Part shown: positions 15,186-53,087 of the stretch, piece by piece | How positions within the stretch are numbered: the first letter of the stretch is position 1 | Layout of the letters: each line of letters opens with the position of its first letter | NCBI GenBank assembly: GCA_963768175.1 | Contig: CAVYGQ010000001.1 | Location: 5,908 to 69,907 of the forward strand | DNA from: Candidatus Doudnabacteria bacterium | Lineage (GTDB): Bacteria; Patescibacteriota; Doudnabacteria; UBA920 | Reading direction: 5' to 3' | DNA: 64,000 bases | Program-made: the position numbers and the translations under genes | The notes under the pieces: model-generated | Databases searched by the model: none | Told to the model about the DNA's origin: nothing | What the model saw: only the letters and a program-made list of their open reading frames with translations

Positions 15186-16514
15186 ATGGCGTATTTTGAT
15201 TTAATAAAAAAAGTTTCGTCTGATAACGCGCCAACAGGCAGAGGTGTCCCCTCTGGAAGAGGGGACACCTCTGCCGCCAGAATCGGGATAATCCACACCG
15301 CGCACGGGGACGTAAAAACGCCGGCGTTTTTGCCTATTGGCACCAAAGGCACGGTTAAATCGGTCACCTCGGAAGAACTTAAGTTTTGGGGCGCGGATAT
15401 GATACTGGCCAATACCTATCATTTGTGGCAGCGTCCGGGCGACGGGCTTATTTATAAAGCTGGCGGCCTGCATAAATTTATGAACTGGAAAGGGCCGATT
15501 TTTACCGACAGCGGTGGGTTTCAGGTTTTTTCTTTGGCCAAAATGCGCAAGGTCATGGAAGCTGGCGTGTTGTTCCAGTTTGATCTGGACGGCAGGCAGG
15601 AAATTTTGTCGCCGGAAAAATCCGTGCAAATACAGGCCAACTTAGGCAGCGACATTGCTTTAATTTTGGACGATTTTCCGGGGTATCCATTTGAGTACGA
15701 GCGATCAAAAGAATCTATTGCGCAAACCAAGCGCTGGGCCGAGCGTGCGCAAAAAGAATATCAAAAAATAATGACGACCATATCCGCCGGAGGCGGATCC
15801 GCCTTTGGCGGAAATCCCGGGCAGAAATTGTGGGGGATTGTGCAGGGAGCTTCGTTTCCCGATTTGCGCAAACAGTCGGCAAACGATATGGCTAAGTTAG
15901 GATTTGAAGGATTTGCCATTGGCGGAGTGGCCGTGGGGGAGCCGCACGAAGAAATGATGAAAGCCGTGGAAGCATCCGTGCCTTTTTTGCCGGAATCCGC
16001 GCCAAAACATCTGTTGGGCGTGGGTACCCCTTTTGACATTGTGCAGGCAGTAAGCCGCGGCTGTGACACTTTTGATTGCGTTATCCCAACGAGGGAAGCG
16101 CGCCATGGTAGGCTTTATGTGTCCGCAAAAATCCACCCCTCTCTAACCCTCCCCCTCAAGGGGAGGGAAATTAAAGGAAAGCCAGGCGGTGTTGTTCCTC
16201 CCCCTGGAGGGGGGAGGCTAGGTGGGGGTGATGAATCTGTTGAAGGTTACTCAACAATTGACATCCGGCTTGAAAAATACAAAGAAGATTTTACGACAAT
16301 AGACAATACTTGCGATTGTTATTTATGCTTAAATCATACCAGATCTTATCTTCGCCACCTGTTTGCCGGCGGCGAGCCGTTGGCTATCCGTTTAGCTACC
16401 ATGCATAATCTGCGTTTTTATTTAAACTTGATGGCCAAAATCCGTAAAGCCATAGAATATGATTATTTTAACGAGATGGCGGAAAATTACAAAGATTATA
16501 CTAATATGGTATAA
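15186..16514 (+). CDS. tgt: Queuine tRNA-ribosyltransferase (tRNA-guanine transglycosylase), carrying in-frame palindromic inserts
   Basis: GIIHTAHGDVKTPAFLPIGTKGTVK and the zinc subdomain CDCYLC...H. In-frame inserts at 15238-15273, 15784-15811 and ~16135-16230. Confidence 0.85.
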   Translation: MAYFDLIKKVSSDNAPTGRGVPSGRGDTSAARIGIIHTAHGDVKTPAFLPIGTKGTVKSVTSEELKFWGADMILANTYHLWQRPGDGLIYKAGGLHKFMNWKGPIFTDSGGFQVFSLAKMRKVMEAGVLFQFDLDGRQEILSPEKSVQIQANLGSDIALILDDFPGYPFEYERSKESIAQTKRWAERAQKEYQKIMTTISAGGGSAFGGNPGQKLWGIVQGASFPDLRKQSANDMAKLGFEGFAIGGVAVGEPHEEMMKAVEASVPFLPESAPKHLLGVGTPFDIVQAVSRGCDTFDCVIPTREARHGRLYVSAKIHPSLTLPLKGREIKGKPGGVVPPPGGGRLGGGDESVEGYSTIDIRLEKYKEDFTTIDNTCDCYLCLNHTRSYLRHLFAGGEPLAIRLATMHNLRFYLNLMAKIRKAIEYDYFNEMAENYKDYTNMV

Positions 16515-16677
16515 TAAGTAAAATTATGAGGCAGTAATGTTGCATCACAATGGGCACCATTGTGTTGCACAATGGTGCCCATTGTATGGATCAACGATGA
16601 CAGAAAAAAATGATTTATCCAACTCCGCCACCCGCCGTCGCCAAGGCTATGGTGGACAAGAGGCTACGTCGGACAAG

Positions 16678-18095
16678 ATGGAAAAAATAGTATCTTTGTG
16701 CAAAAGGCGCGGGTTCATTTTTCCGGGCTCGGAAATTTACGGCGGGTTTGCCAACTCCTGGGATTACGGACCCGTAGGGGTGGAATTAAAAAATAATATT
16801 AAGCAGCTTTGGTGGGAGCGGTTCGTGCACCAGCGGGACGATATGGTCGGCATAGACGCGGCTTTGATAATGAAGCCGGTGGTCTGGGAAGCCAGCGGGC
16901 ATTTAAAAAATTTTTCTGATCCTTTGATAGAATGTAAAAAATGCCATAACAGATTTAAACCTGATCAGCTAGAGGGTATAAAACAAATTGAGAATTTGCC
17001 TGGGGAGTATCCTGCAGGTAAAAATGTCCATTCTGGTTTGGGATCAGGCGTGAGCATCGTTGGAGAAGATAATAAAAGAATTTTTATAAGCGAAAATACT
17101 AAATGCCCCACTTGTGGACAAAAATTTGAATTGAGCGATAAGCCTAAACAATTTAACTTAATGTTTAGAACCCATATCGGCCCTGTAGAATCTGATGAAA
17201 ACATCGTCTATTTCCGTCCGGAAACCGCGCAAGGGATGTTCGTACAATTTAAAAATGTTTTGGACACCAGCCGCAAAACCGTTCCGTTTGGAATTGCGCA
17301 GGTCGGTAAGGCTTTCCGCAACGAAATTACGCCTGGCAATTTTATTTTCCGCACGCGCGAGTTTGAACAAATGGAAATAGAGTATTTTATCCCGGTGCCA
17401 AAGTTGACCAAGACTGGAATAAGTATTTTGAAGATTGGCGGAAGCAGATGCTTTCCTGGATTAAAGATGATCTTGGTATTAAACTGAACCATATCCACGA
17501 GCTGGAAGTGCCGGAAAATGAGCGCGCGCATTACAGCAAACGAACCATTGATTTTGAATATGATTTTCCTTTTGGAAAATCGGAGTTGTATGGGTTGGCT
17601 TATCGCGGCGATTTTGATTTGGCGAACCATCAAAGAATGTCAGGCCAATCTTTGGAATATACCGACCCGCAGACCAACGAAAAATATCTGCCGCACGTAA
17701 TAGAGCCGACTTGGGGCGTGGACAGGAGCGTTTTGGCGGTTTTGTGCGAGTTTTATCGCGAGGAAGAAGACCGCGTGGTTTTGGCTTTGCCGCCAAAATT
17801 GGCTCCTTATAAAGTCGCGGTTTTTCCGCTTTTAAAGAACAAGCCGGAGCTTGTCGCTAAAGCAAAATCAATTTACGATGAATTGCGGAAATCTTTTGCT
17901 ACGGCCTGGGACGAGCGCGGCAATGTGGGCAAGCGTTATTATAGCCAGGACGAAATCGGCACGCCGTTTTGCGTTACCGTGGATTTTGACAGCTTGGAAG
18001 ATGGTATGGTAACCGTCCGCAACCGCGACAGCAAAGAACAGCCGAGGGTGAAGATTGAGGAATTGAAAAATTATTTGTTGGATAAAACCTTTTAA
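16678..18095 (+). CDS. glyQS: Glycyl-tRNA synthetase (alpha2 type), split over two frames by an apparent 1-nt indel near 17395-17405
   Basis: The 16537..17487 and 17448..18095 ORFs together give a complete GlyRS. Frame 1 (…EIEYFIPVPK) joins frame 0 (VDQDWNKYFEDWRKQM...). Start placed at MEKIVSLCKRRGF. Confidence 0.85.
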
Positions 18096-18097
18096 AG

Positions 18098-19571: not shown

Positions 19572-19574
19572 TTT

Positions 19575-19871: not shown

Positions 19872-19882
19872 ATAAGGAAACT

Positions 19883-21178: not shown

Positions 21179-22104
21179 CTTGCTGATTGGCTGCCATGTT
21201 TCCTCCGCCGAGGGGGTGTTTAATGCGCCAAAAAACGCGGCAGATTTAGGCTGCGAAACCTTCCAGATTTTTACGCGGCCGCCTATGGGAGGCAAGGCGC
21301 CGGAGCTGACGGATGAGATTGCCAGGCGGTTTAAAGAGGAAATGGAAAAGTATTTTGACAGAGGTGTCCCCTCTGCTGCAGAGGGGACACCTCTGTTCGT
21401 GGTCCACTGCCCGTATTTTGTTAATTTCGGATCCAAGAGCCCGCATTTACCACGGTTCAATTTCGGTCGTGGGCGAGGAGTTAAAAAGAGCCAATATGCT
21501 TGGCGCAAAATATGTAATGACGCATTTGGGCAGCGGCAAGGATCTTGGCCAAACAGCTGCCCTTCATCAGGCTAAAGAAGGTTTAACGGAAGTCTTAAAA
21601 AAGTATGAGGGCCAAACCCAATTCTTGCTGGAAATTGCCGCCGGGGTAGGCGAAACGCTTGGCGGGACTTTTGAGCAATTGGCCGAACTGATGGGGCCAC
21701 TGGTAAAATTTAAAACTTTCGGCGGAATTTGCTTTGATACCCAGCATGCTTTTGCCAGCGGTTACGATTTGCGCGACGGCGCGGCCGTAGCGGAAACTTT
21801 TAAAAAATTTGATAAAACAATCGGCCTTAGATGGCTAAAAATGAGCCATATTAACGATTCCAAAATAGAGTTGGGCGGCAAAAAAGACCGCCACGAACAC
21901 ATCGGAGACGGGAAAATCGGGGAGAAGGGATTTGGGGCGCTTTTGGCTTATTTAAGCACCCTCTCTGCCACCCTTCGGGTGGCATCTTCTCCAAAGGGGG
22001 AGAAAGATAATGTGCTCCGCGCTTTACCCTTGATTTTGGAAACCGAGCATGATAAAGTAGAGGCAGATATTAAAATTTTGAAAAGTATAAGAGACAAAAT
22101 TTAA
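21159..22104 (+). CDS. nfo: Endonuclease IV (AP endonuclease), split by an apparent 1-nt indel near 21455-21470. Carries two in-frame palindrome inserts.
   Basis: The 21159..21575 ORF (…HCPYFVNFGSKSPHL) and the 21313..22104 ORF (SISVVGEELKRANMLGAKYVMTHLGS...) together match Endo IV. Inserts at 21359-21395 and ~21958-22010. Confidence 0.8.
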
Positions 22105-23754: not shown

Positions 23755-25275
23755 ATGGAAAAATTTTACATCACCACAACCTTGCCTTATGTAAACTCCG
23801 ATCCTCATTTGGGGTTTGCTTTAGAAATGGTCCAAGCCGACGTTATTGCCCGTTATCATAAGGATATTTTAAAGCAGGAAGTATTTTTTAACACGGGCAC
23901 CGATGAGCACGGGCTGAAAATTTTCCGCAAAGCCAAAGAAGAAGGCAAGGAAATCCAAAGCTACGTTAATGAATACGCGGAAAAGTTCAAAAAATTAATG
24001 CCGGCTCTGGGTATAATGCCGGATGTCCATTTTATCCGTACCACCGACCCGCACCATCTTGCCGCTTGCCGGGAGTTCTGGATAAGGTGTTTTAATAATG
24101 GCGATATTTATAAAAAAATCTATAAAGTTAAATATTGCGTAGGCTGCGAGCTGGAAAAAACCGAGAGCGATTTGGACGAAAACGGACGATGCTTGATCCA
24201 TCCGCATTTAAAAATTGAGCTTATAGACGAAGAAAATTATTTTTTCAGGTTTTCCAAATACCAACAGCCGCTTTTGGAATTGTACGGAAAAAATCCGCAA
24301 TTCGTGGTGCCGGATTTTCGCTTTAACGAAATTAAGCAATTCGTAAAATCCGGTTTGCAGGATTTTTCCGTCTCCCGTTTAAAATCCAAAATGCCCTGGG
24401 GCGTGCCGGTGCCGGATGACGAAAACCATGTAATGTATGTGTGGTTTGACGCGCTGATAAATTATGTGTCAACTTTGGGTTGGCCCTCCTCCGCTAAAGC
24501 TCCGGAGGGCAAGCCGTCAGAATTCGATCAATTATGGGGAACGCGCGAACACCCCAATTGCATACAAATCGCCGGCAAAGATAATATCCGCCAGCAGTCG
24601 GCCATGTGGCAAGCCATGCTAATGTCCGCCGGCCTTCCCAATTCCAAACAAATAATTATCCACGGCTTTATTAACAGCGGCGGGCAAAAAATGTCCAAAT
24701 CTTTGGGCAACGTGGCGGATCCGTATGTGATTATCGATCAGCTTAAATCTAAGGGCTTAACCGACGAACAAGCCATAGACGCCCTGCGCTATTATCTTGT
24801 GCGCGAAGTTTCCACCTTTGAAGACGGCGATTACACTTGGGAAAAGTTTGCGGAGAGCTATAACGCGGGCTTGGCGAATGGTATTGGCAATTTAACTAGC
24901 AGGATTATGAAGATGGCAATTAGTAACGATGTAAGTCCTATCAGTCCTATCAGTCCTATCAGTCCTATCAGTCCTATTTCGTCCTATCAGTCCAACCAGT
25001 TCTTGGATAACTACGAGCTCCAAAAAGCTTTCGACGCCGTTTGGCAAAAAATAAAAGCTTGCGATGAGTTTATCCAAAAAAACGAGCCATTCAAAGTTAT
25101 AAAGACAGACAAAGAAAAGGCCACGAAAGATATACAACATTTGTTATCGGAACAGCATCAGATCGCAACCGATTTAATTCCTTTCCTTCCCGCAACCAGC
25201 GAAAAGATATTAGCCGTTTTAAAAAATCCTAAATTGGAAAACATTCCAAAATTATTTCCGAGAATTGATTTTTAA
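23755..25275 (+). CDS. metG: Methionyl-tRNA synthetase, containing an in-frame (SPI)n microsatellite
   Basis: PHLGFA (HIGH-like) and KMSKSLGNV motifs. A 9-bp tandem repeat (agtcctatc) at 24934-24990 encodes SPISPISPISPIS. Confidence 0.85.
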   Translation: MEKFYITTTLPYVNSDPHLGFALEMVQADVIARYHKDILKQEVFFNTGTDEHGLKIFRKAKEEGKEIQSYVNEYAEKFKKLMPALGIMPDVHFIRTTDPHHLAACREFWIRCFNNGDIYKKIYKVKYCVGCELEKTESDLDENGRCLIHPHLKIELIDEENYFFRFSKYQQPLLELYGKNPQFVVPDFRFNEIKQFVKSGLQDFSVSRLKSKMPWGVPVPDDENHVMYVWFDALINYVSTLGWPSSAKAPEGKPSEFDQLWGTREHPNCIQIAGKDNIRQQSAMWQAMLMSAGLPNSKQIIIHGFINSGGQKMSKSLGNVADPYVIIDQLKSKGLTDEQAIDALRYYLVREVSTFEDGDYTWEKFAESYNAGLANGIGNLTSRIMKMAISNDVSPISPISPISPISPISSYQSNQFLDNYELQKAFDAVWQKIKACDEFIQKNEPFKVIKTDKEKATKDIQHLLSEQHQIATDLIPFLPATSEKILAVLKNPKLENIPKLFPRIDF

Positions 25276-26680: not shown

Positions 26681-26760
26681 CCCCTCACCCGTCACCCTTC
26701 CGCCTCCGCCAAGGCTACGGCGGACAGGTCGGGTGACACCCTCTCCCTAAGGGAGAGGGG
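26681..26760. repeat. 80-nt element CCCTCACCCGTCACCC..CGCCAAGGCTACGGCGGACAGGTCGGGTG..CTCTCCCnnnGGGAGAGG (intergenic copy)
   Basis: Near-identical to 39081-39160, which lies inside purH. Confidence 0.7.
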
Positions 26761-26861: not shown

Positions 26862-29822
26862 ATGAATAAATATAATTTTAGTAAGATCGAAAAAAAATGG
26901 CAGTCTTATTGGTCAAAGAAAAAAATTTTTTTGGCCAAGGATTTTAGCAAAAAGCCCAAGAAATATATCTTGGTGGAATTTCCGTATCCCAGCGGCGCGG
27001 GGCTTCATATGGGGCATTTAAGGCCTTATGTGGCGGCCGATGTTTATACCAGATACAGCAGAATGAAGGGTTACGAGACTTTGTTTCCCATCGGCTGGGA
27101 CGCATTTGGCTTGCCCGCGGAAAATTACGCCATTAAAATGGGCGTGCATCCCTCCAAGACTACGGCGCAAAACGTTAAGAATGCCAAGAAGCAAATGCAG
27201 TCTTGGGCGCTTTCTTTTGACTGGAGCCGCGAAATTAATACCACGGACCCGAATTATTATAAATGGACTCAGTGGCTGTTTTTGCAATTTTACAAAAAGG
27301 GTTTGGCTTACGAAGCCACGGGTTTGATTAACTGGTGCCCTAAAGATAAAACCGGTTTGGCCAATGAAGAAGTGATCGATGGAAAATGTGAGCGTTGCAG
27401 CACGACCGTGGAAAAAAAAGAATTGCGCCAGTGGTATTTAAAAATTACCGCCTACGCGGAAAAATTATTGGAAGGACTTAAAAATTTGCCCGACTGGCCG
27501 GAACCGGTCAAGCTCCAGCAGGAGAATTGGATTGGCAAAAGCGTGGGCGCGGAAATAGATTTTATGCTTGTCCAGCCGCTGGTCAAGAGGTTTGTAATTC
27601 TACACGGGAGGGACGGCTCATCACGTAAAAATTTTACCCCTTGGCTCAAAAAAGAACTTGAGTTGCGCGGATTTGAAGTTCAGGCCCCAGATATGCCAAG
27701 TCCGGATATGCCGAATGATGTTCAGCAGGCCGAATTTGTTAAAAATAATTGTAAGTTAGACGAGCAAACCGTTATCATTGGCCATTCTTTTGGCGGGGTG
27801 GTAGCGTTGCGTCTTTTGGAGCAGGGAATTAAAGTTAACCGGACGGTTTTAGTATCAACCCCTTATAGCGGGAAGTTTTTGGACGGCAAGGAGAGGCCGA
27901 CTGTTGCCGCGGCGGTAAAAAAAGGTTTTGATTTTGGGTTCATTAAAAAACAAAAAGCATGTTTTAGCCTTTTGTATGATTTGGGCGATTATGTGGTGCC
28001 GATGTCCGATGGCGAGGAATTTGAGAAGCATACCGGCTTTGGGGTATTAAAAGCCAAAGCTCAGCAGCCGCATTTTAGTGCCAACGAGGAACCGGAAGTG
28101 CTGTCGGTAGCTTTAGGAGCCGTAAGAGTTTTTACCACCAGGCCGGATACGATTTTTGGAGCCACTTATTTGGTATTGGCGCCGGAGCATCCGGTGGCTC
28201 GCGCCACTGCCATGCAGGTCTCCAATTCCGCGGAGGTTTTAAAATATATTGAAGAGGCAAAAAATAAGACAGACATCCAGCGTTCGGCGACTGAAAAAGA
28301 CAAAACAGGCGTGGAGTTAAAGGGTGCGTTCGCGATTAATCCGGCCACCAAAGAAAAAATTTCTATTTGGGTGGCGGATTATGTGCTTTGGGTCTATGGC
28401 ACGGGTGCGATTATGGCCGTGCCCGCGCATGATGAAAGGGATTATGCATTTGCTAAGAAATATCAGCTGCCAATCAAGAGGGTCGTGGTTCCTAAAGGGT
28501 ATTTCGCAAAAGACGACTTTTATACAGGACCTGGCATACTTAAAGATTCGGATGATTTTAGTAATTTAGACTCTGAAGTTGCTATTCCTAAAATGGCAAA
28601 GGAGTTTGGCAAACCGGCCACACAATATAAACTGCGCGATTGGGTATTTTCCAGGCAAAGATATTGGGGCGAGCCGATCCCAATTATCCATTGTCCGAAG
28701 TGCGGGATTGTGCCCGTGCCGGACAAGGACTTGCCGGTAAAGCTTCCGCCGGTTAAAAATTATCAGCCGACCGGGACCGGGGAGTCGCCTTTGGCGGCAG
28801 TCAGCAAATGGGTAAATGTTAAATGTCCGGCCTGCAAATCTTCAGCTAAAAGGGAAACTAATACCATGCCAAATTGGGCAGGGTCATCGTGGTATTGGCT
28901 AAGGTATACCGACCCCAGAGATAAAAAATCTTTTGCCGATTTGCAAAAGCAAAAATACTGGACGCCGGTGGACGTGTATTTTGGCGGAATGGAGCACACC
29001 ACCTTGCATTTACTTTACTCAAGATTTTGGAATTTGTTTTTGTATGATCAAAAGTTGGTAACGTCGCGCGAGCCATACGCCTTGCGCAAGCCGCACGGCA
29101 TTATTTTAGGGCCGGACGGCGAGAAAATGTCCAAGAGCCGCGGCAATGTGGTCAATCCGGACGATATAGTCAAATCTTACGGTGCAGATACTTTAAGGAT
29201 GTATGAAATGTTTTTGGGCCCGCACGAAGATGCCATAGCCTGGAACGGCGAGAGCGTGATTGGCGTGAAGCGGTTTTTGGATAGGGTGTGGAATTGGGTA
29301 AGCGAAGTTGCGGGTGGCAAGTTGTTGGTCGAAAGTGATTCGGAAAAGGTTGCCCGTGCTTTAAATAAGCTGATAAAAAAAATTACCGAAGACATTGAAA
29401 ATTTCCATTTTAATACGGCCATTTCGGCGTTTATGGAATTCCATAATGAGGTTAAAGATGAGCCAATATCTGTGGAATCCATCAAAACATTTTTAAAATT
29501 ACTCTATCCGTTCGCGCCGTATATTTCGGAAGAACTAAATCAGCTTGTTGGCAAAACGCGCGGCCGCGCAAAAAGTCAACAATCCTTGCAGCTGGAAAAC
29601 TGGCCGGCTTTTGACCCGTCAAAAATTGTTGATGCCACTGTGGAAATTGTCGTGCAGATTAACGGCCGTGTTAAAGCCAAGCTGGCCGTGGATGCCGGCA
29701 GCAGTCAGCAACAAGTAAGCGCTAAAGCACAGGAGCTGAATGTAGTTAAGCAGGCTTTAATGAACAAAAGTATCAAGCGAATAATTTTTGTGCCAGGCAG
29801 GCTGATAAATTTTGTTATATAA
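26862..29822 (+). CDS. leuS: Leucyl-tRNA synthetase, carrying an internal ~185-aa YdeN/RBBP9-like alpha/beta serine-hydrolase domain insertion (about 27568-28126)
   Basis: HMGH and KMSKS class I motifs and a full-length LeuRS. Between ...IGKSVGAEIDF and RVFTTRPDTIFGATY lies FVILHGRDGSSRKNFTPWLKKEL...IIGHSFGG..., which resembles YdeN (VYIIHGY..FPWLKKRL.., GHSLG). Confidence 0.9.
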   Translation: MNKYNFSKIEKKWQSYWSKKKIFLAKDFSKKPKKYILVEFPYPSGAGLHMGHLRPYVAADVYTRYSRMKGYETLFPIGWDAFGLPAENYAIKMGVHPSKTTAQNVKNAKKQMQSWALSFDWSREINTTDPNYYKWTQWLFLQFYKKGLAYEATGLINWCPKDKTGLANEEVIDGKCERCSTTVEKKELRQWYLKITAYAEKLLEGLKNLPDWPEPVKLQQENWIGKSVGAEIDFMLVQPLVKRFVILHGRDGSSRKNFTPWLKKELELRGFEVQAPDMPSPDMPNDVQQAEFVKNNCKLDEQTVIIGHSFGGVVALRLLEQGIKVNRTVLVSTPYSGKFLDGKERPTVAAAVKKGFDFGFIKKQKACFSLLYDLGDYVVPMSDGEEFEKHTGFGVLKAKAQQPHFSANEEPEVLSVALGAVRVFTTRPDTIFGATYLVLAPEHPVARATAMQVSNSAEVLKYIEEAKNKTDIQRSATEKDKTGVELKGAFAINPATKEKISIWVADYVLWVYGTGAIMAVPAHDERDYAFAKKYQLPIKRVVVPKGYFAKDDFYTGPGILKDSDDFSNLDSEVAIPKMAKEFGKPATQYKLRDWVFSRQRYWGEPIPIIHCPKCGIVPVPDKDLPVKLPPVKNYQPTGTGESPLAAVSKWVNVKCPACKSSAKRETNTMPNWAGSSWYWLRYTDPRDKKSFADLQKQKYWTPVDVYFGGMEHTTLHLLYSRFWNLFLYDQKLVTSREPYALRKPHGIILGPDGEKMSKSRGNVVNPDDIVKSYGADTLRMYEMFLGPHEDAIAWNGESVIGVKRFLDRVWNWVSEVAGGKLLVESDSEKVARALNKLIKKITEDIENFHFNTAISAFMEFHNEVKDEPISVESIKTFLKLLYPFAPYISEELNQLVGKTRGRAKSQQSLQLENWPAFDPSKIVDATVEIVVQINGRVKAKLAVDAGSSQQQVSAKAQELNVVKQALMNKSIKRIIFVPGRLINFVI

Positions 29823-35150: not shown

Positions 35151-35235
35151 GCCGGAGTGATGAAACTGGCAAACATACACAACTCAAAATCGTGCGCCGA
35201 AAGGCTTGTGGGTTCAAGTCCCACCTCCGGCACCA
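35151..35235 (+). tRNA. tRNA-Leu (anticodon CAA), class II with a long variable arm
   Basis: Acceptor GCCGGAG/CTCCGGC, anticodon loop CTCAAAA, variable arm GCC-GAAA-GGC, T-arm GTGGG-TTCAAGT-CCCAC, discriminator A and CCA. The ORF-track N-terminus of 'parB' overlaps it and is spurious. Confidence 0.7.
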
Positions 35236-35343
35236 GACTTCGTTAAAGCTTCGTCTGGCCTTCGGCCACTACACTTGCAGCTTTTGCGAAGTCTGTCCGA
35301 CGAAGCCTTGGCGAAGTCGGACCGGTTGAAATATTTAATTTTT

Positions 35344-40708: not shown

Positions 40709-40725
40709 TCATCAGATATTCCAAT

Positions 40726-40760
40726 AAGGGGCATCCTTTTGTTGCAAAAGGATGCCCCTT
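40726..40760. terminator. Bidirectional terminator AAGGGGCATCCTTTT-gttgc-AAAAGGATGCCCCTT (the same palindrome core recurs at 56093-56140)
   Basis: Perfect 15-bp inverted repeat between convergent genes. Confidence 0.6.
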
Positions 40761-40765
40761 ATTCT

Positions 40766-42070
40766 TTACTGGTCAATCAGAGTTTTTACGGTCGAAGTCA
40801 GCGCTGCATTACCGGTAGCCGCGGTCAGTTTGGTCGGCCAGGCTTTGTCGCCAACATCAATGTCCGGCAAAACGCCGTTGTCCTGGATAGGTGGCTGACC
40901 TTGCACAACCGTCAGGGCGGTGACCAAGTGCACCGAATAAATCTGGTTAAAATCAAACTGGTTGCTAATGGAAAAGGGCTGTTCGTTTTCTACCGTGCCC
41001 CAGCCGAAAGTTTTGTTGCCCACCAAAATGCCGACATTGAATTTTTTAAGCGCCCCGGCCAAAAGTTCGGTGGAAGATTGGTCTTGGCCGTCAATCAAAA
41101 TTACAATATGCTTAAAGCGCGCCAGAGCCGGCAATACGTTAGCCGTGGTCTGGAATGATTGGTAGTTGCCCTGATGCAAAAATTGATAGGCGACCTGGTT
41201 TTGGCCGACAAAGAAGCCGAGCATCTGTGGAATTATGTCCAGGTAACCGCCAATATTGCCGCGTAAATCAAAAATCAGAGTGTCCAGCTTAGGTGGCTGG
41301 CTGCTTACGGAATTGACTGCATCGGTAAATTCTTTAATTGAGGTGCTCGGCGAAAAACGGACAAAGTGCATATAAAAAATTTCCGACGACAGCTGTTTGT
41401 TGACAATGGTGGCTTGGATGCCTTGCGTGTCGTACAATTGTTTGCTTGAGGGTTGGGACAGGGTGGCGTAGGCATTGTTGATTTTTGCCAATTTTTGCTT
41501 GGCCGCGGGCGTATTTTGTTTATTTAAAGCCGCGGACTGCTGTTGGTAGGACTGCTGGATCTGTTGGGGGCTGGCGTTTTGGCCTAAGCCCAAATCCGCG
41601 TAAAGGTTTTGGTTGGGGTTAATATTATTGAGTTCGTACATCAGCGCTTGCTGGGAGGCCTGGGTGTAAAGGGCACTGCGGCCGGTCGGCGGCAGGTTGT
41701 TTAAGACATTGGCGGACAGCAGAGAGGCATAGAGGTTTTGCTGTTGGATGGTAAAACCGGCCATGGCTTGGGTCATCATTGTTTCCAGCCCCGCTTTATT
41801 GGGGCTCGGCAAAGGCACATGTTTGCCCAGCAGTTTATCGGAAGCGTCCTGATAGAGCTTGGTCAGCTGCTGGTCGGAAATGTTATCCCAATAATTTTTT
41901 TGGATGGTGTCGTAGACTTCGTCGGTAAAGGCCAGGTAAGTGTTTTTGGTCTGCGCGGCGGCCGGCGTGGATTTACTCTGTTTGATTTTTACCGCAGCAA
42001 AAACCGCGGCGCCTATTAATATTGCCGCAATCAGTATCCAGGCTATTAGATTGGGGTTAAGCTTTTTCAT
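40766..42070 (-). CDS. S41 family C-terminal processing peptidase with an N-terminal TM anchor and a degenerate J-domain-like segment
   Basis: LIFDLRGNIGGYL...ILIDGQDQSSTELLAGALK...VGNKTFGWGTVE. The segment YADLGLGQNASPQQIQQSY...AKQKLAKINNAYATLSQPSSKQLYD resembles a J-domain lacking HPD. Confidence 0.75.
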   Translation of the reverse strand: MKKLNPNLIAWILIAAILIGAAVFAAVKIKQSKSTPAAAQTKNTYLAFTDEVYDTIQKNYWDNISDQQLTKLYQDASDKLLGKHVPLPSPNKAGLETMMTQAMAGFTIQQQNLYASLLSANVLNNLPPTGRSALYTQASQQALMYELNNINPNQNLYADLGLGQNASPQQIQQSYQQQSAALNKQNTPAAKQKLAKINNAYATLSQPSSKQLYDTQGIQATIVNKQLSSEIFYMHFVRFSPSTSIKEFTDAVNSVSSQPPKLDTLIFDLRGNIGGYLDIIPQMLGFFVGQNQVAYQFLHQGNYQSFQTTANVLPALARFKHIVILIDGQDQSSTELLAGALKKFNVGILVGNKTFGWGTVENEQPFSISNQFDFNQIYSVHLVTALTVVQGQPPIQDNGVLPDIDVGDKAWPTKLTAATGNAALTSTVKTLIDQ

Positions 42071-43062: not shown

Positions 43063-43456
43063 CAAAATTTTAATAAGCAAGTATAATACTAACAATTAAA
43101 TAAGGAACCTCCCGCTCTGGCGGGAAATTACTCAATTTAAGTCGATTTGGCCGGGAAGAACCCTCATCCGCCACCCTTTGGGTGGCACCTTCTCTCAAAG
43201 GGAGAAGGAAAGAAGGAAAGGGCTATGCATCAAAAGGTTTCAGATGAGTACCGGCCGAACGAAGTAGCAAAAAATCCTTTTTTGCTTGGGATTTTTTTGT
43301 TGCAATAGATTTTTAATCATTATTTTTCTCCCCAAAGCTTGGGGAGATGTCCCGAGCGGGAGCGAGGGATAGAGAGGTTTGAACCTTACTTTTAACCTCT
43401 CCCCCGACCCCTCTCCATGAATTGGAGAGGGGAGCCCAATAAGGAAAAAGATTCTT

Positions 43457-43948: not shown

Positions 43949-44584
43949 ATGCCAAGAAAATCCAGAAGTTACGATAAACATATCCCGGCGCCCGACCCGA
44001 AATACGGCAGCGTAAAATACGCTAAATTTATTAATTATATAATGGAGCGCGGGAAAAAGAACGTGGCGCGCAAGATTTTTTACGATGCCTTGGATATTGT
44101 CGGCGAAAAAGTCGTTGCCGCGCCTGTGGCAGCTCCTGCTCCGGTAAAGCCGGCTATGGAGGTTAAAGGTAAATCAGCCGATAAAAAATCCGTCATTGAA
44201 GCTAAAACGGTTGAAGAAAAGCCGCAAGTCCATGCCGAGGGAAAACAGAAAGCGCAGGACAAAAAGTTGGACGGACGTACGGTTTTTGATATCGCATTAA
44301 AAAACGTGGCGCCGATTATGGAATTAAAATCACGCAGAATCGGCGGCGCCAACTACCAGGTGCCTATGGAAGTGCAGGAACCGCGCAAAACAACCTTGGG
44401 CATGCGCTGGCTTTTGACCGCGGCCAGGAGCAAAAAAGGCATGCGCATGGCCGAGCGTTTGGCCGGCGAGATAATGGATGCTTACAACAAGACCGGCATA
44501 GCCATGAAGAAGCGCGAAGACGTCCACCGCATGGCCGAAGCCAACAAGGCTTTCGCGCATTTTGCGAGGTTTGGCAGGAGATAA
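43949..44584 (+). CDS. rpsG: 30S ribosomal protein S7 with a ~55-aa A/P/K/E-rich low-complexity insertion
   Basis: S7 ends conserved (…[16 protein letters not shown]...[18 protein letters not shown]). The insert [24 protein letters not shown]...QDKKLDG is absent from canonical S7. Confidence 0.9.
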
Positions 44585-44606: not shown

Positions 44607-46799
44607 ATGTCAAGAGAATATCCTATTGAAGTTACAAGAAATATCGGCATTATCGCCCACATAGATGCCGGCAAAACAACCGTCACCGAAGGCGTTTTGT
44701 ATAACACCGGCATGGTCCACAAAATCGGCGCGGTGCACGAAGGTGATACCGTTACCGACTGGATGGAGCAGGAGCGCGAGCGCGGCATTACCATTACCGC
44801 CGCGGCCGTAACCTGCTATTGGGTGCCAAAATTTATTAAATTGGCTAACGACATTAATCCCGTTAGAAGTCAGACGCCAGGGGCGTCTGCTGGTGCGCGA
44901 GCGCACCAGACTTCTAACGGGATAAAGCATAAAATAAATATTATAGACACTCCCGGCCACGTGGACTTTACCGTGGAAGTGGAGCGGTCTTTGCGCGTGC
45001 TGGACGGCGCGGTGGTCGTGTTTGACGGCAAAATGGGCGTGGAGCCGCAAAGCGAAACCGTGTGGCGCCAGGCTGACAAATACCACGTGCCGCGCATGTG
45101 CTTTATCAACAAAATCAACCAGACCGGCGGAGACTTTTACAAGTCGCTGGACTCAATCCATAAAAGATTATCGCCGAACGCTTTTCCCATCCAGTTGCCC
45201 ATAGGCTTTGAAAAAGACATTTGCGGGGTGGTGGATTTGATAAACATGAAAGCTTACACTTACAAGGATTTTACGGACAAGGAATTTACCGTGGGCGAAG
45301 TTCCGGCCGACATGCTGGAAAAGGCCAAAGAATGGCGCCACAAGCTTTTGGAAAAAGTCGTGGAGAGCGATGACGTAATAATGGAAAAATATTTGTCCGG
45401 ACAGGAGCTAACGGAAACCGAAGTTTTAACGGCTATCCGCAAGGCCGTGCAGGGCGGACAGTTCTTCCCGGTTTTGGGCGGAGACGGCCGGGGCATTATT
45501 GTGCAGACTATTTTGGATGCCGTAACCAACTTTTTGCCGAGCCCGGTAGACCGCGGCAATATCAAAGGCCATGACCTTAAAACTGGTATGGAGATAGAAA
45601 GAAAGCCCAGCGATGACGAGCCTTTTACCGCTTTGGCTTTTAAAATCGCCACCGATGCTTTTGTCGGAAGGTTGTGTTTTTTCCGCGTTTACGCCGGGCA
45701 TTTGGAAGCTGGCTCCTACGTGCTTAACGCGCGAACGGAAAATAAAGAGCGCGTGGGGCGCATTGTGCGCATGAAGGCGGATGAACGCGAAGAAGTCAAG
45801 GAAGTTTTTGCCGGCGATATTTGCGCGCTGGTCGGGCCCAAAGATACTTTTACCGGAGACACTTTGTGCGACGTGGAAAAACCCATTGTCCTGGAAAGAA
45901 TCAAGTTTGCCGAGCCGGTAATCCACATGTCCATTGAGCCCAAGACCAAAGCCGACCAGGAAAAAATGGGCATCGCGCTTTCCAAACTCGCCGAAGAAGA
46001 CCCGACTTTTAAACTTTCCACCAACGAGGAAACCCAGCAGACCATTATTGGCGGGATGGGCGAACTCCATTTGGAAATCATTGTGGACAGGATGAAGCGC
46101 GAATTTAAAGTGGAAGCCAATGTGGGCAAGCCGGAAGTCGCGTATAAAGAAACCATCAAAAAAACGGCCGAAGCCGAAAGCAAATACATCCGCCAAACCG
46201 GCGGCCGCGGGCAATACGGGCATGTTTATTTGCGCGTAGAGCCGCTGCAGCGCGGTAAAGGCTATGAGTTTGTGGATGAAGTTGTCGGCGGCGTTATTCC
46301 CAAAGAATACATTAAGCCGATAGACAAAGGCATCCAGGAAAGCGCGGCTAACGGCGTCATTGCCGGATATCCTTTGGTGGACTTTAGGGCCGCGGTATTC
46401 GATGGTTCCTACCACGAAGTTGACTCTTCGGAAATGGCGTTTAAAATTGCCGCTTCCAAGGGCTTGCAGGACGCGGTCAAAAAAGCCGACCCGGTTATTT
46501 TGGAGCCGATTATGAAGGTAGAAGTTACCACGCCGGAAGTCAATATGGGCGACGTGATTGGGGATTTGAATTCCAAGCGCGCGCAGATAAATGAAATGAC
46601 GGGCAAGTTGCATTTAAAAGTTATTGATGCGATGGTGCCGCTTTCTGAAATGTTTGGTTATGCCACGGCTCTTCGTTCCATGACACAAGGACAAGCTAGC
46701 TACACTATGGAGTTTGACCATTACGCCGAAGTGCCTAGGAACGTCGCGGCCGGGATTATTGAGAGCAGGGCCGGGATTAATGTACGTAAGGGGATGTAA
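44607..46799 (+). CDS. fusA: Elongation factor G, with a 22-codon in-frame palindromic insertion in the G domain
   Basis: [14 protein letters not shown]...DTPGHVDF. Insert 44857-44923 encodes ...[22 protein letters not shown]. Confidence 0.95.
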
Positions 46800-46843
46800 A
46801 CCGCTGAATGAACGCGGATTGCTACGCTGATTAGACGCTGAAT

Positions 46844-47395: not shown

Positions 47396-47746
47396 ATGAC
47401 AAATCTAAATGATTTAATTAATCTAGCTAAAGCCGATGGAGGCAAGTTTTTTGTCATTGACGAGAGCGGGGATGCTAAGTTGGTGATAATGAGCGTGGAA
47501 GATTACCAGCGCCTGCTACTCGGCAAGCTCCAGCGCCAGGTAATGGATGTGGAAAGCATCAACAAGGAAATTTTAAAAGCCCAGCTGGAAGAGCAGCCTT
47601 CGTCGCCCGCACCGCAAACCAAAGGCCCGACTGTCGTCAACAGGCCGCAAGTCCATCAACAGCGCAATTCCGTTGATTTGCGCGCGGAAGTTATAGACCC
47701 GAGTTTTGATTTTGAAGGCCCGAAGGTGGAAATAGATGATTTGTAA
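47396..47746 (+). CDS. Phd/YefM-like antitoxin-fold protein with an unusual C-terminal tail (orphan, no toxin adjacent)
   Basis: N-terminal KFFVIDESGDAKLVIMSVEDYQRLL resembles the Phd/YefM fold. Confidence 0.4.
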   Translation: MTNLNDLINLAKADGGKFFVIDESGDAKLVIMSVEDYQRLLLGKLQRQVMDVESINKEILKAQLEEQPSSPAPQTKGPTVVNRPQVHQQRNSVDLRAEVIDPSFDFEGPKVEIDDL

Positions 47747-47898
47747 AACGCTGATTTCACGCTGATAAGGACGCTGAAATTACGCTGATGACAGGCGTGC
47801 CCATTCCGGAATTTTTGATTGAAATAAGATTATCATCGGCAATCAAAAATATCCGGAATCCAGAAACATATACATTATCATCTTAAAATCAAAATAGT

Positions 47899-49675: not shown

Positions 49676-49705
49676 AGGGTTGACAAATTTGATAAATAAC
49701 TTTAA
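49676..49705 (+). promoter_or_regulatory. Sigma70-like promoter for tuf (TTGACA-17-TAAAAT). The leader carries a copy of the CTTCGCTAAAGCTTCG repeat.
   Basis: Seen directly in the sequence. Confidence 0.5.
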
Positions 49706-49924
49706 AATAAGTTGTAGTTAAAAAATTAATTTTTGCTCTGGATTCCAATACGCCCCTGCTTCGCTTCCCCCTTCGCTAAAGCTTCGGGGGACAAGAAAGC
49801 TTCGCAGGGCAGGGAAAAAAAGAGATAAACCCTTGGTCTTGTGCCAAAGATCGATCAGGCACAGTGCCTAGGGTTTCTCGGGCAAATATCGCCCCCAGAA
49901 TGGGGGAAAAGAAAGGTTAAAACA

Positions 49925-51112: not shown

Positions 51113-51148
51113 AAAGATAAACACGGACTGATAATGGATTAACACGAA

Positions 51149-51184
51149 AAAGGACTGTCCTTGTTTAGGACAGTCCTTTTGGTT
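51149..51184 (+). terminator. Terminator AAAGGACTGTCC-ttgtttagg-ACAGTCCTTTT after tuf
   Basis: Seen directly in the sequence. Confidence 0.6.
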
Positions 51185-51389
51185 ATGTACGTTTGTTTAT
51201 CTGGTTGACTACAACTGCTTAAAACCGCGGCCGCGGTTTTAAGCAGTAACTTCTTCTTTCCACTCGCAAATGTTTGTGGGCGGGAAGAAGGGGACGAACA
51301 AACAGCGTTCGTCCCAAAGTGCATACCCTGAACCGCTAAAGAGCGGTTCAGCCGCTCGGATTGCCCGAGCAGCTCTGCCAGGATTTTGG

Positions 51390-52043
51390 CTATTTGTATA
51401 TGAGGCGTGTCGCCTCTCCCAGAGAGCGGAGGCGGCGCCAGTCAATTGCTACGGGGATTGGTGCGGAGACGGGGTACCATCTCCTCCAGCTCCCTTCTGA
51501 CCGGCAGGCCCAGATGGGACGGGCGAATTTGTCCACGAAAACTACCGTGGAAGATTCCGAGCCGCCGATGCGGGCGACCGCCTCTGCTGGCGGCCGAACG
51601 GCGGTCGTCCCCTTTGCGAAGCAGACTTCCTTCGGTCTGGGGTCGTTCCTGTGGGAGAAACACATCCGCCTTGCCTGTTGCAAGGTGACGTGCTCTTCTC
51701 GCCGTTCGGCCCGGATTTTGGGCAGGGTGCAGCGCTCCCACAGCCGGGTAGCTATCAGGCTCGCCGGGCACGGCCGGATGAGGAACTCCACCCCTCCGAA
51801 CTTCAATGTATGACCGATGTACGATCGGTCCAAACGCATACGGAATAGCGCGTCGACCACATACAGTGGGCCGACGGCCGCGTTGGTGTGATAGCCCTTC
51901 TGTCTTACTTCTTCAAAATCCCCCGGCTTTGGGGGCTCACTGAAGAAGCGGGTATGAATCCCATACCCGATCCCCGAAAGGATCGTGTCCTCCAGGCCGG
52001 CTACTCCAGCCTCGAAGTCCACTAGCAACAACATCTTCGCCAT
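51390..52043 (-). CDS. GC-rich (~60%) hypothetical protein (217 aa), inserted between tuf and rpsJ. Paralog of the frameshifted gene at 36761..37241.
   Basis: Strong RBS (AAGGAGTAAGAAA-ATG) at the MAKM start. Local GC is far above the window average. Hairpin clusters lie 3' of the gene (51270-51360), and an imperfect 24-bp inverted repeat (CTTATAGGGAGCAAACCAATTATC / GATAATCAATTTGTTCCCTATAAG) lies 5' of it (52100-52170). Confidence 0.5.
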   Translation of the reverse strand: MAKMLLLVDFEAGVAGLEDTILSGIGYGIHTRFFSEPPKPGDFEEVRQKGYHTNAAVGPLYVVDALFRMRLDRSYIGHTLKFGGVEFLIRPCPASLIATRLWERCTLPKIRAERREEHVTLQQARRMCFSHRNDPRPKEVCFAKGTTAVRPPAEAVARIGGSESSTVVFVDKFARPIWACRSEGSWRRWYPVSAPIPVAIDWRRLRSLGEATRLIYK

Positions 52044-52526
52044 TTTCTTACTCCTTCCCTTGCCAGTCACCTTGCGCCAGCTGGCGCAAAGCGAAATTCT
52101 GGGCTTATAGGGAGCAAACCAATTATCTTTAAAAGTTAGGATTTAGATAATCAATTTGTTCCCTATAAGAGTTGTTAGGAAAGAAATAAGGCAATCTATT
52201 TTATTTTGTCAAAGAACTAACCGATTGTCTGATGCCTAAATTTAGCTTCTCCACAAGGTCGAAGACTAAATATTTAGCATTCGGCAATACTGGCTCCAAA
52301 ATCTTATTTCAGATTTTGAAGTAATATTATAGCATATATTCAATTTTTTGTCAATACTGCCCATTTCTATTGACAAAAGCTACATCTTACTATAAACTAT
52401 TGCAAGTATGTTATTGTAACGCGGAAGGACGCGGAATTTAACGCGGAACAACGCGGAAGCTATATTTTTATCAATTAATAAGGCAAAAGTCGCCAGTTTT
52501 AGATTTGCGGACAAGGTCTTTAAAAA

Positions 52527-52850
52527 ATGGATAAGGAAGCCCAAGCTCCAAAGATTCGCATAAAGATAAAAGCTTATGACCATAAGCTTATTGATCAAAG
52601 TGCGAAACAGATTGTAGAGACCGCCAAACGCACCGGCGCGTCTATTTCGGGCCCGATTCCGCTTCCTACGGAAAAGACCAAGTATACCGTGCTTCGCTCC
52701 ACCTTTGTGCACAAAGACAGCCGCGAACAGTTTGAAATGCGCGTCCATAAACGGCTGATTGATATTTTAAACGCCACGCCAAAAACCATAGATTCTTTAA
52801 CGAACTTGAATTTACCGGCGGGAGTTGACGTAGAAATCAAAATGAGCTAA
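52527..52850 (+). CDS. rpsJ: 30S ribosomal protein S10
   Basis: [30 protein letters not shown]. Confidence 0.95.
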
Positions 52851-53087
52851 AGCTCATTTCTAGTTATAAAGTTGAAAGTTATAAAGTTAATAAAGTAAGT
52901 GAATTAGTTCTATTTTTCTTAGAGCTATAAGAAGGCCTAAGAAAATAACCCTCTCTGCCCGCCTTCGGCGGACATCTCCCCCAAAGGGGGAGAGAAATAA
53001 GGAAAGGCTATGTAGAAAACGATTTGCTCCAAACATTATCAAGTTTTTGATATTATTGCGGGCAAATCGGCCCCGCATTTTTATTTA

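Follow-up and report, generated by a model that had tools for sequence, protein, structure and literature searches.

In-frame copies of a composite GC-rich palindromic repeat in purH and other genes of a Patescibacteria genome

How did one short palindromic repeat come to lie both in a gene spacer and, in frame, inside purH? The question is raised by a 64,000-nt stretch of DNA (the window) from a Patescibacteria (CPR) genome of roughly 0.95 Mb, in which repeats are found between genes as well as in frame within them. An earlier note had called two 80-mers identical in its title. A repeat search (family D16) and MAFFT alignment reveal at this place a 78-nt direct repeat with 75/78 identical positions; near-identity stands, identity does not, and the true ends lie 1 nt further in on each side. 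The copies are 12.4 kb apart in unrelated contexts. Their 5' flanks are unrelated and their 3' flanks display marginal similarity only (p about 0.03). RNA folding z-scores are -6.1 for the intergenic and -4.5 for the purH copy. The two copies, and the parts of the latter, are as follows.

26682-26759, + strand: intergenic composite copy between the DUF559 gene (stop 26676) and leuS (start 26862), with the same layout as the purH copy
39082-39159, + strand: purH composite copy, in frame inside purH (38733-40427)
39082-39090, + strand: C-block of the purH copy
39091-39097, + strand: left arm of stem B
about 39099-39128, + strand: F2 hairpin
39131-39137, + strand: right arm of stem B
39139-39147, + strand: second C-block
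39151-39159, + strand: G-block, preceded by the loop AAA

What is this element made of? Its three 9-nt blocks, C1 (CCCTCACCC), C2 (CCCTCTCCC) and G2 (GGGAGAGGG), match the published pattern (CCCTCNCCC / GGGNGAGGG twice on the opposite strand) of TMECO/PIT, an intrastrand-triplex motif of E. coli described alongside BoxC structures (Holder et al. 2015, NAR 43:10126, PMC4666352), whose counts cover 262 proteobacterial genomes. As with TMECO, the repeats are multi-copy and dispersed, and their loci are unstable among relatives. However, loop 2, between C1 and C2, measures 48 nt instead of 3 and holds two nested hairpins: stem B (GTCACCC/GGGTGAC, perfect in the intergenic copy) itself carries a second hairpin, F2, with a covarying stem of 6 bp, a 14-nt loop (TYCGCCAAGGCTAC) that is conserved, and a CARG tail. 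TMECO copies in E. coli MG1655 are always intergenic (PMC4666352), whereas in the window purH and other genes harbour in-frame copies, and the present host is a CPR bacterium. The B stem is private to, and common to, both window 78-mers, and its junction has no match in IMG/VR or JGI. Shorter forms of the repeat align with the 78-mers as one architecture, to which the 78-mer adds a 30-nt hairpin in the middle-stem loop. We regard the 78-mer as probably belonging to a repeat family whose members are small, modular, rich in GC and of non-B-DNA (hairpin/triplex) type.

Related hairpin modules had been noted in tgt and nfo and upstream of rpsL, rplC and glyS. All of these were recovered, those in nfo and before rpsL and rplC with the same architecture by alignment, and the 64-kb window contains more cases than were listed then. 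Modules range from 30 to 81 nt.

11173-11212, + strand: D11 double palindrome within a RimK-like ATP-grasp gene, in frame
15237-15275, + strand: 39-nt palindrome with a perfect 18-bp stem, in frame close to the tgt N-terminus (GRGVPSGRGDTSA), of the same family as 21358-21396
15778-15817, + strand: double palindrome of family D11, CCGCC-GGCGG, that lengthens tgt in frame by 13 aa over solved Tgt
16135-16230, + strand: two block-type hairpins (CCCTCCCC/GGGGAGGG-type; 16147-16167 and 16197-16217), in frame in tgt, belonging to an insert of about 41 aa not in solved Tgt
16621-16675, + strand: F2-like half units (..GCCAAGGCTATGGTGGACAAG AGGCTACGTCGGACAAG) between tgt and glyS, ahead of the true glyS start at 16679
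21358-21396, + strand: 39-nt palindrome with a perfect 18-bp stem, in frame within the N-terminal portion of nfo
21958-22010, + strand: short form (block - GCCACCC TTC GGGTGGC - block/loop/block), in frame in nfo, encoding about TLSATLRVASSPKGEKDN; the insert of about 18 aa is missing from solved homologues
24481-24513, + strand: F2 hairpin, in frame in metG (SSAKAPEGK)
30408-30447, + strand: D11 double palindrome, in frame in a Sua5/YrdC-family gene (tsaC), a 10-aa insert not in the syntenic L232 orthologue
35230-35262 (+ strand) and 35295-35322 (- strand): looser F2 copies near the next feature
35434-35466, + strand: F2 hairpin in the tRNA-Leu/parB spacer
43161-43213, + strand: short form in the spacer upstream of rpsL
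44853-44921, + strand: 69-nt three-way palindrome, in frame in fusA (EF-G; 23-letter peptide), which neither the L232 orthologue nor solved EF-G contains
49763-49795, + strand: F2 hairpin upstream of tuf
52948-53000, + strand: short form between rpsJ (52527-52850) and rplC (53167-)
54434-54473, + strand: D11 double palindrome, in frame in rplD (L4), judged from excess length over the Pfam profile
57616-57648, + strand: F2 hairpin within the rplV (L22) C-terminal extension, in frame (FAKASSGK)

The repeats do create a protein-coding mosaic, as had been suggested: they form inserts relative to solved homologues of PurH, Tgt and nfo. In-frame hairpin inserts number three in tgt and two in nfo, besides those in EF-G, tsaC and L4. 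Insert status was assigned from solved homologues or a syntenic orthologue for tgt, nfo, fusA and tsaC, while the metG and rplV repeats are in frame with no insert-free baseline. All inserts are a multiple of 3 in length and have an open reading frame. The window contains three homopolymer frameshifts, 1-nt under-calls situated away from the elements, so the consensus sequence is imperfect.

What does the repeat contribute to PurH? The gene is bona fide, with Pfam MGS and AICARFT_IMPCHas domains. The copy is read as TLTRHPFASAKATADRSGGTLSQRERE (26 full codons and two split) and constitutes a clean 27-codon insert, in which residues 117-143 correspond to nt 39082-39159; ATADRSGGTLSQR would be an example of a peptide spanning it. 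Solved PurH structures skip the insert (query 108 to 148 vs 129 to 139 in 4ehi). It falls in a loop of the MGS-like domain, as the earlier note had anticipated: in the AlphaFold2 model residues 119-138 are a low-confidence coil between helices 106-118 and 139-151, with pLDDT below 50 at 123-134. The insert is most likely a translated, hydrophilic disordered loop; translation as such we infer. The segment is shared only inside this Patescibacteria clade and is absent from unrelated PurH, and among 24 aligned orthologues 8 lack any insert there. These orthologues are 519 to 613 aa long, with five variable hot-spots that hold different repeat families in different proteins. In the syntenic loci L232, L233 and L234 the outer blocks (ACCCTCACC...CCCTCTCCCARAGGGAGAGGG) flank differing centres at the same purH codon, and the four genomes with purH blocks are about 25-30% apart in protein sequence. 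To judge from the blocks at this codon in three syntenic relatives, the purH insertion is not recent. The L232 copy is a strict TMECO match with a type-B CCG loop, and the loop AGA is common to both L233 copies, a private variant as stem B is in the window. Third-codon positions are invariant in 9 of 11 block codons vs 126 of 526 elsewhere (Fisher p=1e-4). The almost frozen third positions, together with the blocks in three relatives, indicate an old site constrained at the nucleotide level. In a single protein these blocks appear in two reading frames (LSQRERE, PSPRGRGE), which we count in favour of translation.

Taking these observations together, we propose that, probably, an ancestor of the clade acquired a cosmopolitan composite within its purH, later remodelled and translated as a loop. 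The copy would owe its survival to a permissive surface-loop location, a length that is a multiple of three and an open frame. In-frame deletion or nested insertion may later have altered the centre in related lineages, and copy-and-paste, through gene conversion or re-insertion, may have preserved or produced the likeness between the purH and intergenic copies of the window. Their 96% identity could be due in part to constraint and not to recent copying, since F2 is almost invariant across phyla.

How widespread is F2? The window matches its core pattern 6 times, where shuffled sequence gives an expectation of 0, so the recurrence is no accident of composition. Four collection scans, for F2, the base motif and an F2-beside-block composite, returned at least 111 loci each and at least 120 in three of them. 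In the one scan that names organisms, at least 120 GTDB species genomes, spread over about ten phyla, carry the exact F2 24-mer. JGI has at least 120 loci where C1 adjoins F2, and many of them show the complete C1-[stem-F2-stem]-C2-loop-G2-G1 layout. Among the matches listed, locus GC ranges from 35 to 73%. On these sequence matches F2, the base motif and the F2-block composite are cosmopolitan and not specific to this genome. Among the matches listed, 12 of 18 intragenic F2 copies in low-GC loci use the FAKATxDK frame, as do 3/3 in the window. The search pattern leaves three stem positions unconstrained, and among the matches listed these pair perfectly in 67 of 111 distinct copies, with 10 different triplets; we estimate a chance expectation of about 2, at 1/64 per copy for unrelated arms.

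Such covarying stems around an invariant 14-nt loop, across phyla, raise the tentative possibility that the hairpins are maintained as nucleic-acid signals (blocks to 3'-5' mRNA decay, RNase or protein sites, translation pauses or DNA signals), the coding copies being exaptations instead of tolerated selfish DNA. The frozen third-codon positions and strong folding z-scores are in keeping with this, as is the metG site, where genome L194 also carries F2 and the stem changes in a compensatory manner (CTCC/GGAG vs CGCC/GGCG) despite an altered peptide. Intergenic copies also occupy operon spacers (rpsJ-rplC; upstream of rpsL, tuf and leuS), and 5/6 intergenic F2 copies are in sense orientation. 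However, Rfam has no family match at E up to 10, F2 stem mismatches are not enriched in G-U, and presence or absence is free to vary at orthologous sites. E. coli TMECO showed no promoter, terminator or positional pattern (PMC4666352), and covariation could be mimicked by gene conversion or by template-switch perfection of palindromes. Some function at the DNA or RNA level may exist.

Could the elements simply transpose? Near-identical copies in unrelated contexts, a dispersed family with the conserved-hairpin logic of HUH transposase substrates, hot-spots held by different families and a spread across phyla suggestive of horizontal transfer would fit REP/REPIN- or MITE-like units moved in trans by a hairpin-recognising transposase (RAYT, IS200/IS605-type HUH or similar), with the purH and intergenic copies as two recent insertions. 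We consider this unlikely, as one purH codon shared by such divergent genomes implies one old event. No target-site duplication, terminal inverted repeats or transposase was identified for the repeats, so mobility is something that we only infer; among the window ORFs scanned no transposase was seen and the sole recombinase is a tyrosine integrase beside tRNA-Arg, and cultured phages have no F2 and plasmids essentially none. REP/BIME elements, GTAG/CGTC-tagged palindromes associated with RAYT transposases (PMC3733652), are likewise short, GC-rich, imperfect, highly repeated and often mosaic. Yet REPs are extragenic and conserve the stem and the GTAG/CGTC head around a variable loop, whereas F2 conserves the loop, varies the stem and has no conserved GTAG/CGTC head; no RAYT is seen in the window.

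It is improbable that the palindromes arose locally, by fork stalling at triplex- or hairpin-prone DNA with slippage and intra-strand template switching creating, perfecting, nesting and deleting them in place. TMECO loci are indeed small-indel hot-spots in E. coli with hairpin-preserving deletions (PMC4666352), the purH centre differs in four of four relatives around fixed blocks, many F2 copies have outer stems that are palindromes peculiar to their locus, and some loci hold 'onion' arrays, (TCCNCC TTCGCCAAGGCT)n then (ACGGNGGACAAG)n. This process leaves unexplained, however, the recurrence of an identical 24-mer loop and stem and of the composite layout in unrelated phyla and sites, and the private variants common to the two 78-mers. 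It is best seen as remodelling of copies that came by another route. Ribosome skipping, reported for the GC-rich 'byp' elements of yeast mitochondria, or removal from mRNA would suit very stable hairpins in AT-richer coding sequence and nucleotide conservation beyond the needs of the peptide, but is highly improbable, given that every intragenic copy examined is stop-free and a multiple of three, that one hydrophilic frame is strongly favoured (12/18) and that the three true frame breaks lie away from the elements.

The proposed ancestral entry of a composite into purH, followed by remodelling, joins features of known kinds: the outer blocks belong to TMECO/PIT, and in-frame repeat insertion is familiar from the Rickettsia palindromic elements (RPE; Ogata et al. 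2000, 2002, summarised in PMC10969869 and PMC3184786). Small repeats that are now and then fused to or embedded in coding sequences are also found among betaproteobacterial BRE and pneumococcal BOX/RUP/SPRITE repeats (reviewed in PMC3184786), but those are larger, lineage-restricted and often disruptive, whereas here in-frame insertion is frequent and affects core translation and nucleotide-metabolism genes. RPE are likewise palindromic, fold-compatible surface-loop inserts, in frame within unrelated housekeeping genes, with intergenic copies too. They are about 105-150 bp long, whereas the present modules are shorter, nested and modular, with cores common to many phyla, and the likeness drawn here is one of description. 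Much like Rickettsia palindromic elements, the inserts add apparently floppy loops to essential enzymes.

The pair of near-identical 80-mers described in the earlier note is real: a 78-nt direct repeat, with 75/78 identity between its copies, lies at 26682-26759, between the DUF559 gene and leuS, and at 39082-39159, inside purH. The 5' flanks of the two copies are unrelated and the 3' flanks share marginal local similarity only (p ~0.03 against shuffles). Both copies fold much more strongly than shuffled sequence (z = -6.1 for the intergenic copy and -4.5 for the purH copy). The repeat is a composite, in which an inner hairpin, F2, sits on an outer stem, B, and 9-nt blocks (C1, C2 and G2) stand on either side.

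Parts of the 78-nt repeat in the intergenic copy (for the purH copy, add 12,400 to each coordinate)
26682-26690: block C1, CCCTCACCC
26691-26697: left arm of stem B, GTCACCC, then TT
26700-26728: F2 hairpin, CCGCC + TCCGCCAAGGCTAC + GGCGG + ACAGG, then TC
26731-26737: right arm of stem B, GGGTGAC, then A
26739-26747: block C2, CCCTCTCCC, then loop TAA
26751-26759: block G2, GGGAGAGGG

Copies of family D14, built like the 78-mer except that stem B ends in a plain TTC/TTT loop
21958: in nfo
43161: upstream of rpsL
52948: between rpsJ and rplC

The 78-mers are therefore D14 elements plus a 30-nt F2 unit, and their earlier grouping with the copies in nfo, upstream of rpsL and between rpsJ and rplC holds by virtue of this shared plan. 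Neither IMG/VR nor the JGI metagenomes yielded a match to the junction, GGCGGACARGNNGGGTGRCNCCCTCTCCC, that is peculiar to the window composite.

Within the purH ORF (38733-40427; Pfam MGS and AICARFT_IMPCHas domains) the segment 39082-39159 reads as TLTRHPFASAKATADRSGGTLSQRERE. As had been proposed, it is an insert: solved PurH structures align with its flanks and leave it out (query 108 to 148 against 129 to 139 of 4ehi), and 8 of 24 aligned orthologues, the whole set being ~63-78% identical over aligned positions and 60-74% by BLASTP over the whole query, have nothing at the site (EINK-PGPTKESVIE). Five variable hot-spots account for the spread of orthologue lengths (519-613 aa), and all five are filled, in the same alignment, with peptides resembling translated hairpins. 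At one hot-spot the block DNA reads LSQRERE and at another the same DNA reads PSPRGRGE, which marks the repeat as DNA rather than a protein motif. When a 34-aa phmmer query was run for proteins with the insert, two marginal matches emerged among 1.8 billion proteins.

How old is the purH insertion? The syntenic loci of three relatives (L232, L233 and L234) carry the blocks at exactly the same purH codon, as ACCCTCACC ... CCCTCTCCC-ARA-GGGAGAGGG, around centres that differ.

Centre of the purH element
The window: stem B and F2
L233: F2 hairpin without stem B
L234: its own hairpin, GTCCCGACCAGGGTCGGGACG
L232: CGG only

Third-codon positions are invariant in 9/11 block codons against 126/526 elsewhere in purH (Fisher p = 1e-4), and where the amino acid is invariant the codon is identical in 8/10 block columns against 91/327 others (p = 0.001). 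These comparisons of sequence indicate that the purH site is old and under DNA-level constraint. Selection for a DNA- or RNA-level function is a rival explanation that such constraint would suit. Private variants common to the copies of one genome, namely the loop AGA in both purH copies of L233 and the stem-B junction in both window 78-mers, point to copy-and-paste or gene conversion within genomes atop the old insertion. The centres seen in the relatives could equally have arisen by deletion or be intermediate steps of nesting.

Among known systems, the blocks match those of TMECO/PIT, an E. coli intrastrand-triplex motif with the pattern 5'-CCCTCNCCC N3-6 GGGNGAGGG N3 GGGNGAGGG (Holder et al. 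2015, PMC4666352). TMECO numbers 3610 copies in 262 proteobacterial genomes, is intergenic in 23/23 cases in E. coli MG1655, folds into a triplex in vitro and has been linked to local instability (PMC4666352). On the minus strand, 26682-26759 and 39082-39159 both read CCCTCTCCC ... GGGAGAGGG ... GGGTGAGGG, and both contain the three TMECO blocks (CCCTCNCCC, GGGNGAGGG, GGGNGAGGG) with at most one mismatch. Their loops of 3 and 48 nt depart from the motif, in which loop 1 has 3-6 nt and loop 2 exactly 3 nt, and the 48-nt loop may prevent the triplex fold. The L232 purH copy is, on its minus strand, a strict match of type B with CCG as loop 2. Location is a further difference from the intergenic motif, as one of the two strict-block window copies lies in purH and degenerate relatives lie in tgt and nfo. 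Variability of the locus beyond that of its surroundings is shared with TMECO, given four different centres between invariant blocks at one purH codon. The TMECO base pattern alone has at least 120 matches in IMG/VR.

In behaviour the modules match the Rickettsia palindromic elements (RPE), which are palindromic repeats found in frame in unrelated ORFs and also between genes (PMC10969869, PMC3184786). The in-frame placement here is based on solved homologues or a syntenic orthologue for purH, tgt, nfo, fusA and tsaC, and on excess length over the Pfam profile for rplD. The insertion is also compatible with the fold, for AlphaFold2 places the PurH insert in a low-confidence coil (residues 119-138, pLDDT <50 at 123-134) between two helices (106-118 and 139-151). 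The likeness is one of behaviour: RPE measure ~105-150 bp and have a conserved peptide, whereas the window modules measure 30-81 nt and present the same DNA in different frames, and the CPR host is a different one. The GTAG/CGTC head of REP sequences is absent, since the F2 position is A, T or C and gives CTAC, CTTC or CTCC. Classical trans-mobilisation by an unseen transposase is a second rival explanation, and repeated copies at unrelated flanks are what it would produce; a Pfam scan of ~40 window ORFs yielded no RAYT (Y1 HUH transposase), and the 78-mers differ from MITEs in that their flanks share no duplication and the 5' block has no inverted partner at the 3' end.

The distribution of F2 reaches far beyond this genome. 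Its pattern, TYCGCYAARGCTNCGNNNGRCARG, matches the window six times, each time on the plus strand, and shuffled sequence not once; in IMG/VR it has 111 loci, on contigs of 35-72% GC. The three stem positions left free by the pattern are fully complementary in 67/111 distinct copies, with ten different triplets, where we estimate that unrelated arms would give ~2/111 (1/64 per copy). The exact 24-mer TYCGCCAAGGCTACGGCGGACARG occurs at no fewer than 120 loci in GTDB species genomes; the matches listed include Acidobacteriota, Verrucomicrobiota (with the cultured Cerasicoccus arenae), Kiritimatiellia, Lentisphaerae, Planctomycetota, delta- and gamma-Proteobacteria, a Rickettsiales MAG, Acidimicrobiia, a Bifidobacterium MAG, Saccharibacteria and Patescibacteria. 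C1 lies within 30 nt of F2 at 120 or more loci in JGI metagenomes and, among the matches listed, many have the full layout C1-[GKCC TTCCGCC F2 TCGGMC]-A-C2-loop-G2-N2-G1. The window 78-mer is therefore a member, without G1, of a widespread composite, and this membership speaks against a third rival, purely local genesis through replication errors. F2 has no match in cultured phage genomes and only three marginal ones in plasmids, all in Rhizobium megaplasmids. Rfam recovers three tRNAs only from the window at gathering score; around the elements, F2 included, it has no credible match with E as high as 10. As a literal string F2 has no match in the searchable literature, and a literature search on palindromic or in-frame repeats in CPR/Patescibacteria returned nothing relevant; we met neither a description of F2 nor one of elements of this kind in CPR bacteria. 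At four loci in GTDB genomes (L125, L154, L190 and L153) halves of F2 form 'onion' arrays, with n 18-nt units TCCNCC-TTCGCCAAGGCT followed by n 12-nt units ACG-GNGGA-CAAG, both unit lengths being multiples of three.

Further inserts are spread over the window. Compared with solved homologues, Tgt has inserts of ~41 aa (16135-16230) and 13 aa (15778-15817), Nfo one of ~18 aa, and EF-G ~26 additional residues, which include a 69-nt three-way palindrome (z = -7.1) missing from the L232 orthologue; in PDB alignments the Tgt and EF-G inserts are gaps between well-aligned flanking segments. A 39-nt perfect palindrome is present near the N-terminus of Tgt and another of the same family in Nfo. Two more perfect palindromes, intergenic and with a TTG loop, are found at 16547-16585 (39 nt, tgt-glyS) and 40723-40763 (41 nt, purH-S41), similar to the intragenic 39-nt ones in design and different in sequence. 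TsaC/Sua5 contains a 10-aa double palindrome that L232 lacks, and metG and rplV carry hairpin repeats in frame. L4, a RimK-like protein, an M24 peptidase, TatD, S7 and an integrase are longer than their own Pfam profiles. The uS7 protein (rpsG, 43949-44584) has ~50 more residues between ~60 and 106 than most solved uS7 chains, a length common to its relatives (211-227 aa); the 191-aa chain 9t0z_G of the PDB aligns with it end to end and might show the seat of the extension on the ribosome. The C-terminal part of the metG ORF includes a tandem array (24934-24993) in which the 9-nt unit AGTCCTATC is repeated ~6.6 times.

Each intragenic copy that was examined has an open frame and a length divisible by three. 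At loci below 50% GC, 18/39 F2 copies fall within ORFs of at least 120 aa and 12/18 use the FAKATxDK frame, as do all three intragenic F2 copies of the window (SAKATADR, SAKAPEGK and FAKASSGK). In a comparison of ORF coverage among IMG/VR contigs with F2, the high-GC contigs are open in many frames. Elsewhere F2 is hosted by ATP synthase alpha, a PEP-utilising enzyme, MetRS, a lambda-type portal protein, a prepilin peptidase and a glycosyltransferase; the MetRS copy of one further genome (L194) occupies the same site as the window metG copy, and a compensatory change in its stem alters the peptide. A fourth rival explanation holds that the inserts are non-translated. Translational-bypass ('byp'-like) inserts break the frame or bear stops, whereas the window copies are open, in multiples of three and biased in frame, and on this reading of the ORFs we consider translation into tolerated loops likelier than bypass or excision. 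An assembly artefact as the source of the purH blocks is ruled out because they occupy the same site in three independent assemblies (NCBI GCA_003151625.1, an ENA assembly and a JGI metagenome).

The setting is a gene-dense stretch of ~44% GC from a small Patescibacteria (CPR) genome; by PurH its nearest named relatives are Patescibacteria and Ca. Doudnabacteria, and its gene order agrees with Patescibacteria contigs. Three genes are split into two overlapping ORFs, namely nfo (21420-21440), glyS (17390-17405) and rplD (54245-54256), and each is repaired by one homopolymer base (TTT to TTTT, CCC to CCCC and CCCC to CCCCC, respectively). An element-induced frameshift or ribosomal bypass was rejected for these splits, which are 1-nt homopolymer under-calls distant from the elements and look like consensus error of the sort that long-read or flow-based sequencing tends to produce and not like biology. 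Several other features were recorded. Between tuf and rpsJ, ~1.4 kb (51140-52520) of ~53% GC holds numerous strong hairpins, unusual in a streamlined genome; Pfam matches none of its ORFs, and Rfam nothing in the region with an E limit of 0.1. The spacers of the ribosomal-protein operon hold an AT-rich 97-nt pair with 99% identity (54669-54765, after rplD, and 61277-61373, after rplE) and an AT-rich 102-nt family of three (55144-55245, 57765-57866 and 62735-62836), all with short tandem units of the AATGACA type. Arrays of the heptamer ACGCTGA at ~11-nt spacing (family D17; 46797-46841, 47744-47788 and 59705-59749) lie directly 3' of three genes. LeuRS (leuS 26862-29822, 986 aa) shows weak Abhydrolase_1, Abhydrolase_6 and Ser_hydrolase matches (E ~1e-5, residues ~243-342) between the first catalytic-core match and the editing domain, and this hydrolase-like segment may be a domain insertion. 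At 71-8082, two ORFs of 829 and 1864 aa without a Pfam match consist of 123-nt periodic repeats with 52-55% GC against ~44% elsewhere; as they adjoin tRNA-Arg (8492-8566) and a tyrosine integrase (9216-10442, minus strand), they may be an integrated island. An S41 (C-terminal processing) peptidase (40766-42070, minus strand) bears an N-terminal DnaJ domain, a fusion kept in L232 and L233.

Based on these observations, we propose that purH of an ancestor of the clade received a cosmopolitan composite made up of TMECO blocks and F2, which would have been retained because it was in frame and in a permissive loop. Its centre would then have been reshaped, whether through deletions in frame or through nesting, as expected of instability-prone non-B DNA, and the copy homogenised with at least one other copy of this genome; the insert would be translated. 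A bolder reading, which we hold to be rather unlikely, is that F2 (invariant loop TYCGCCAAGGCTAC, covarying 6-bp stem, CARG tail) and its composite with the TMECO blocks constitute a previously undescribed pan-bacterial, ultra-small element that crosses phyla, colonises coding sequence in one preferred frame, and owes its upkeep at the nucleotide level to a universal host factor reading the loop or else to a new copy mechanism directed at hairpins. The phyla that such an element appears to cross are Acidobacteriota, Verrucomicrobiota and others of the PVC superphylum (Planctomycetes-Verrucomicrobia-Chlamydiae), Proteobacteria, Actinobacteria and CPR. If this were true, the purH copy would show how the element persists over the long term inside an essential gene.

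What are the implications of in-frame palindromes in purH and other genes? In practice they inflate protein lengths, generate spurious 'conserved' peptides (FAKATADK, LSQRERE, PSPRGRGE) and risk misleading homology searches and gene calls in metagenome-assembled genomes. The locus connects the biophysically studied TMECO motif both with coding sequence and with another hairpin, apparently undescribed so far, whose sequence hardly varies between phyla. It thereby offers a system in which to test if the role of such DNA is selfish, structural or regulatory, and if triplex- or hairpin-prone sequences drive indel hot-spots inside genes. In-frame 'coding palindromes', called 'unique' to Rickettsia in the title of one paper, would not be a peculiarity of that genus; they would be a routine source of protein loops in streamlined CPR genomes, including loops in EF-G, tRNA-modification enzymes, aminoacyl-tRNA synthetases and ribosomal proteins.
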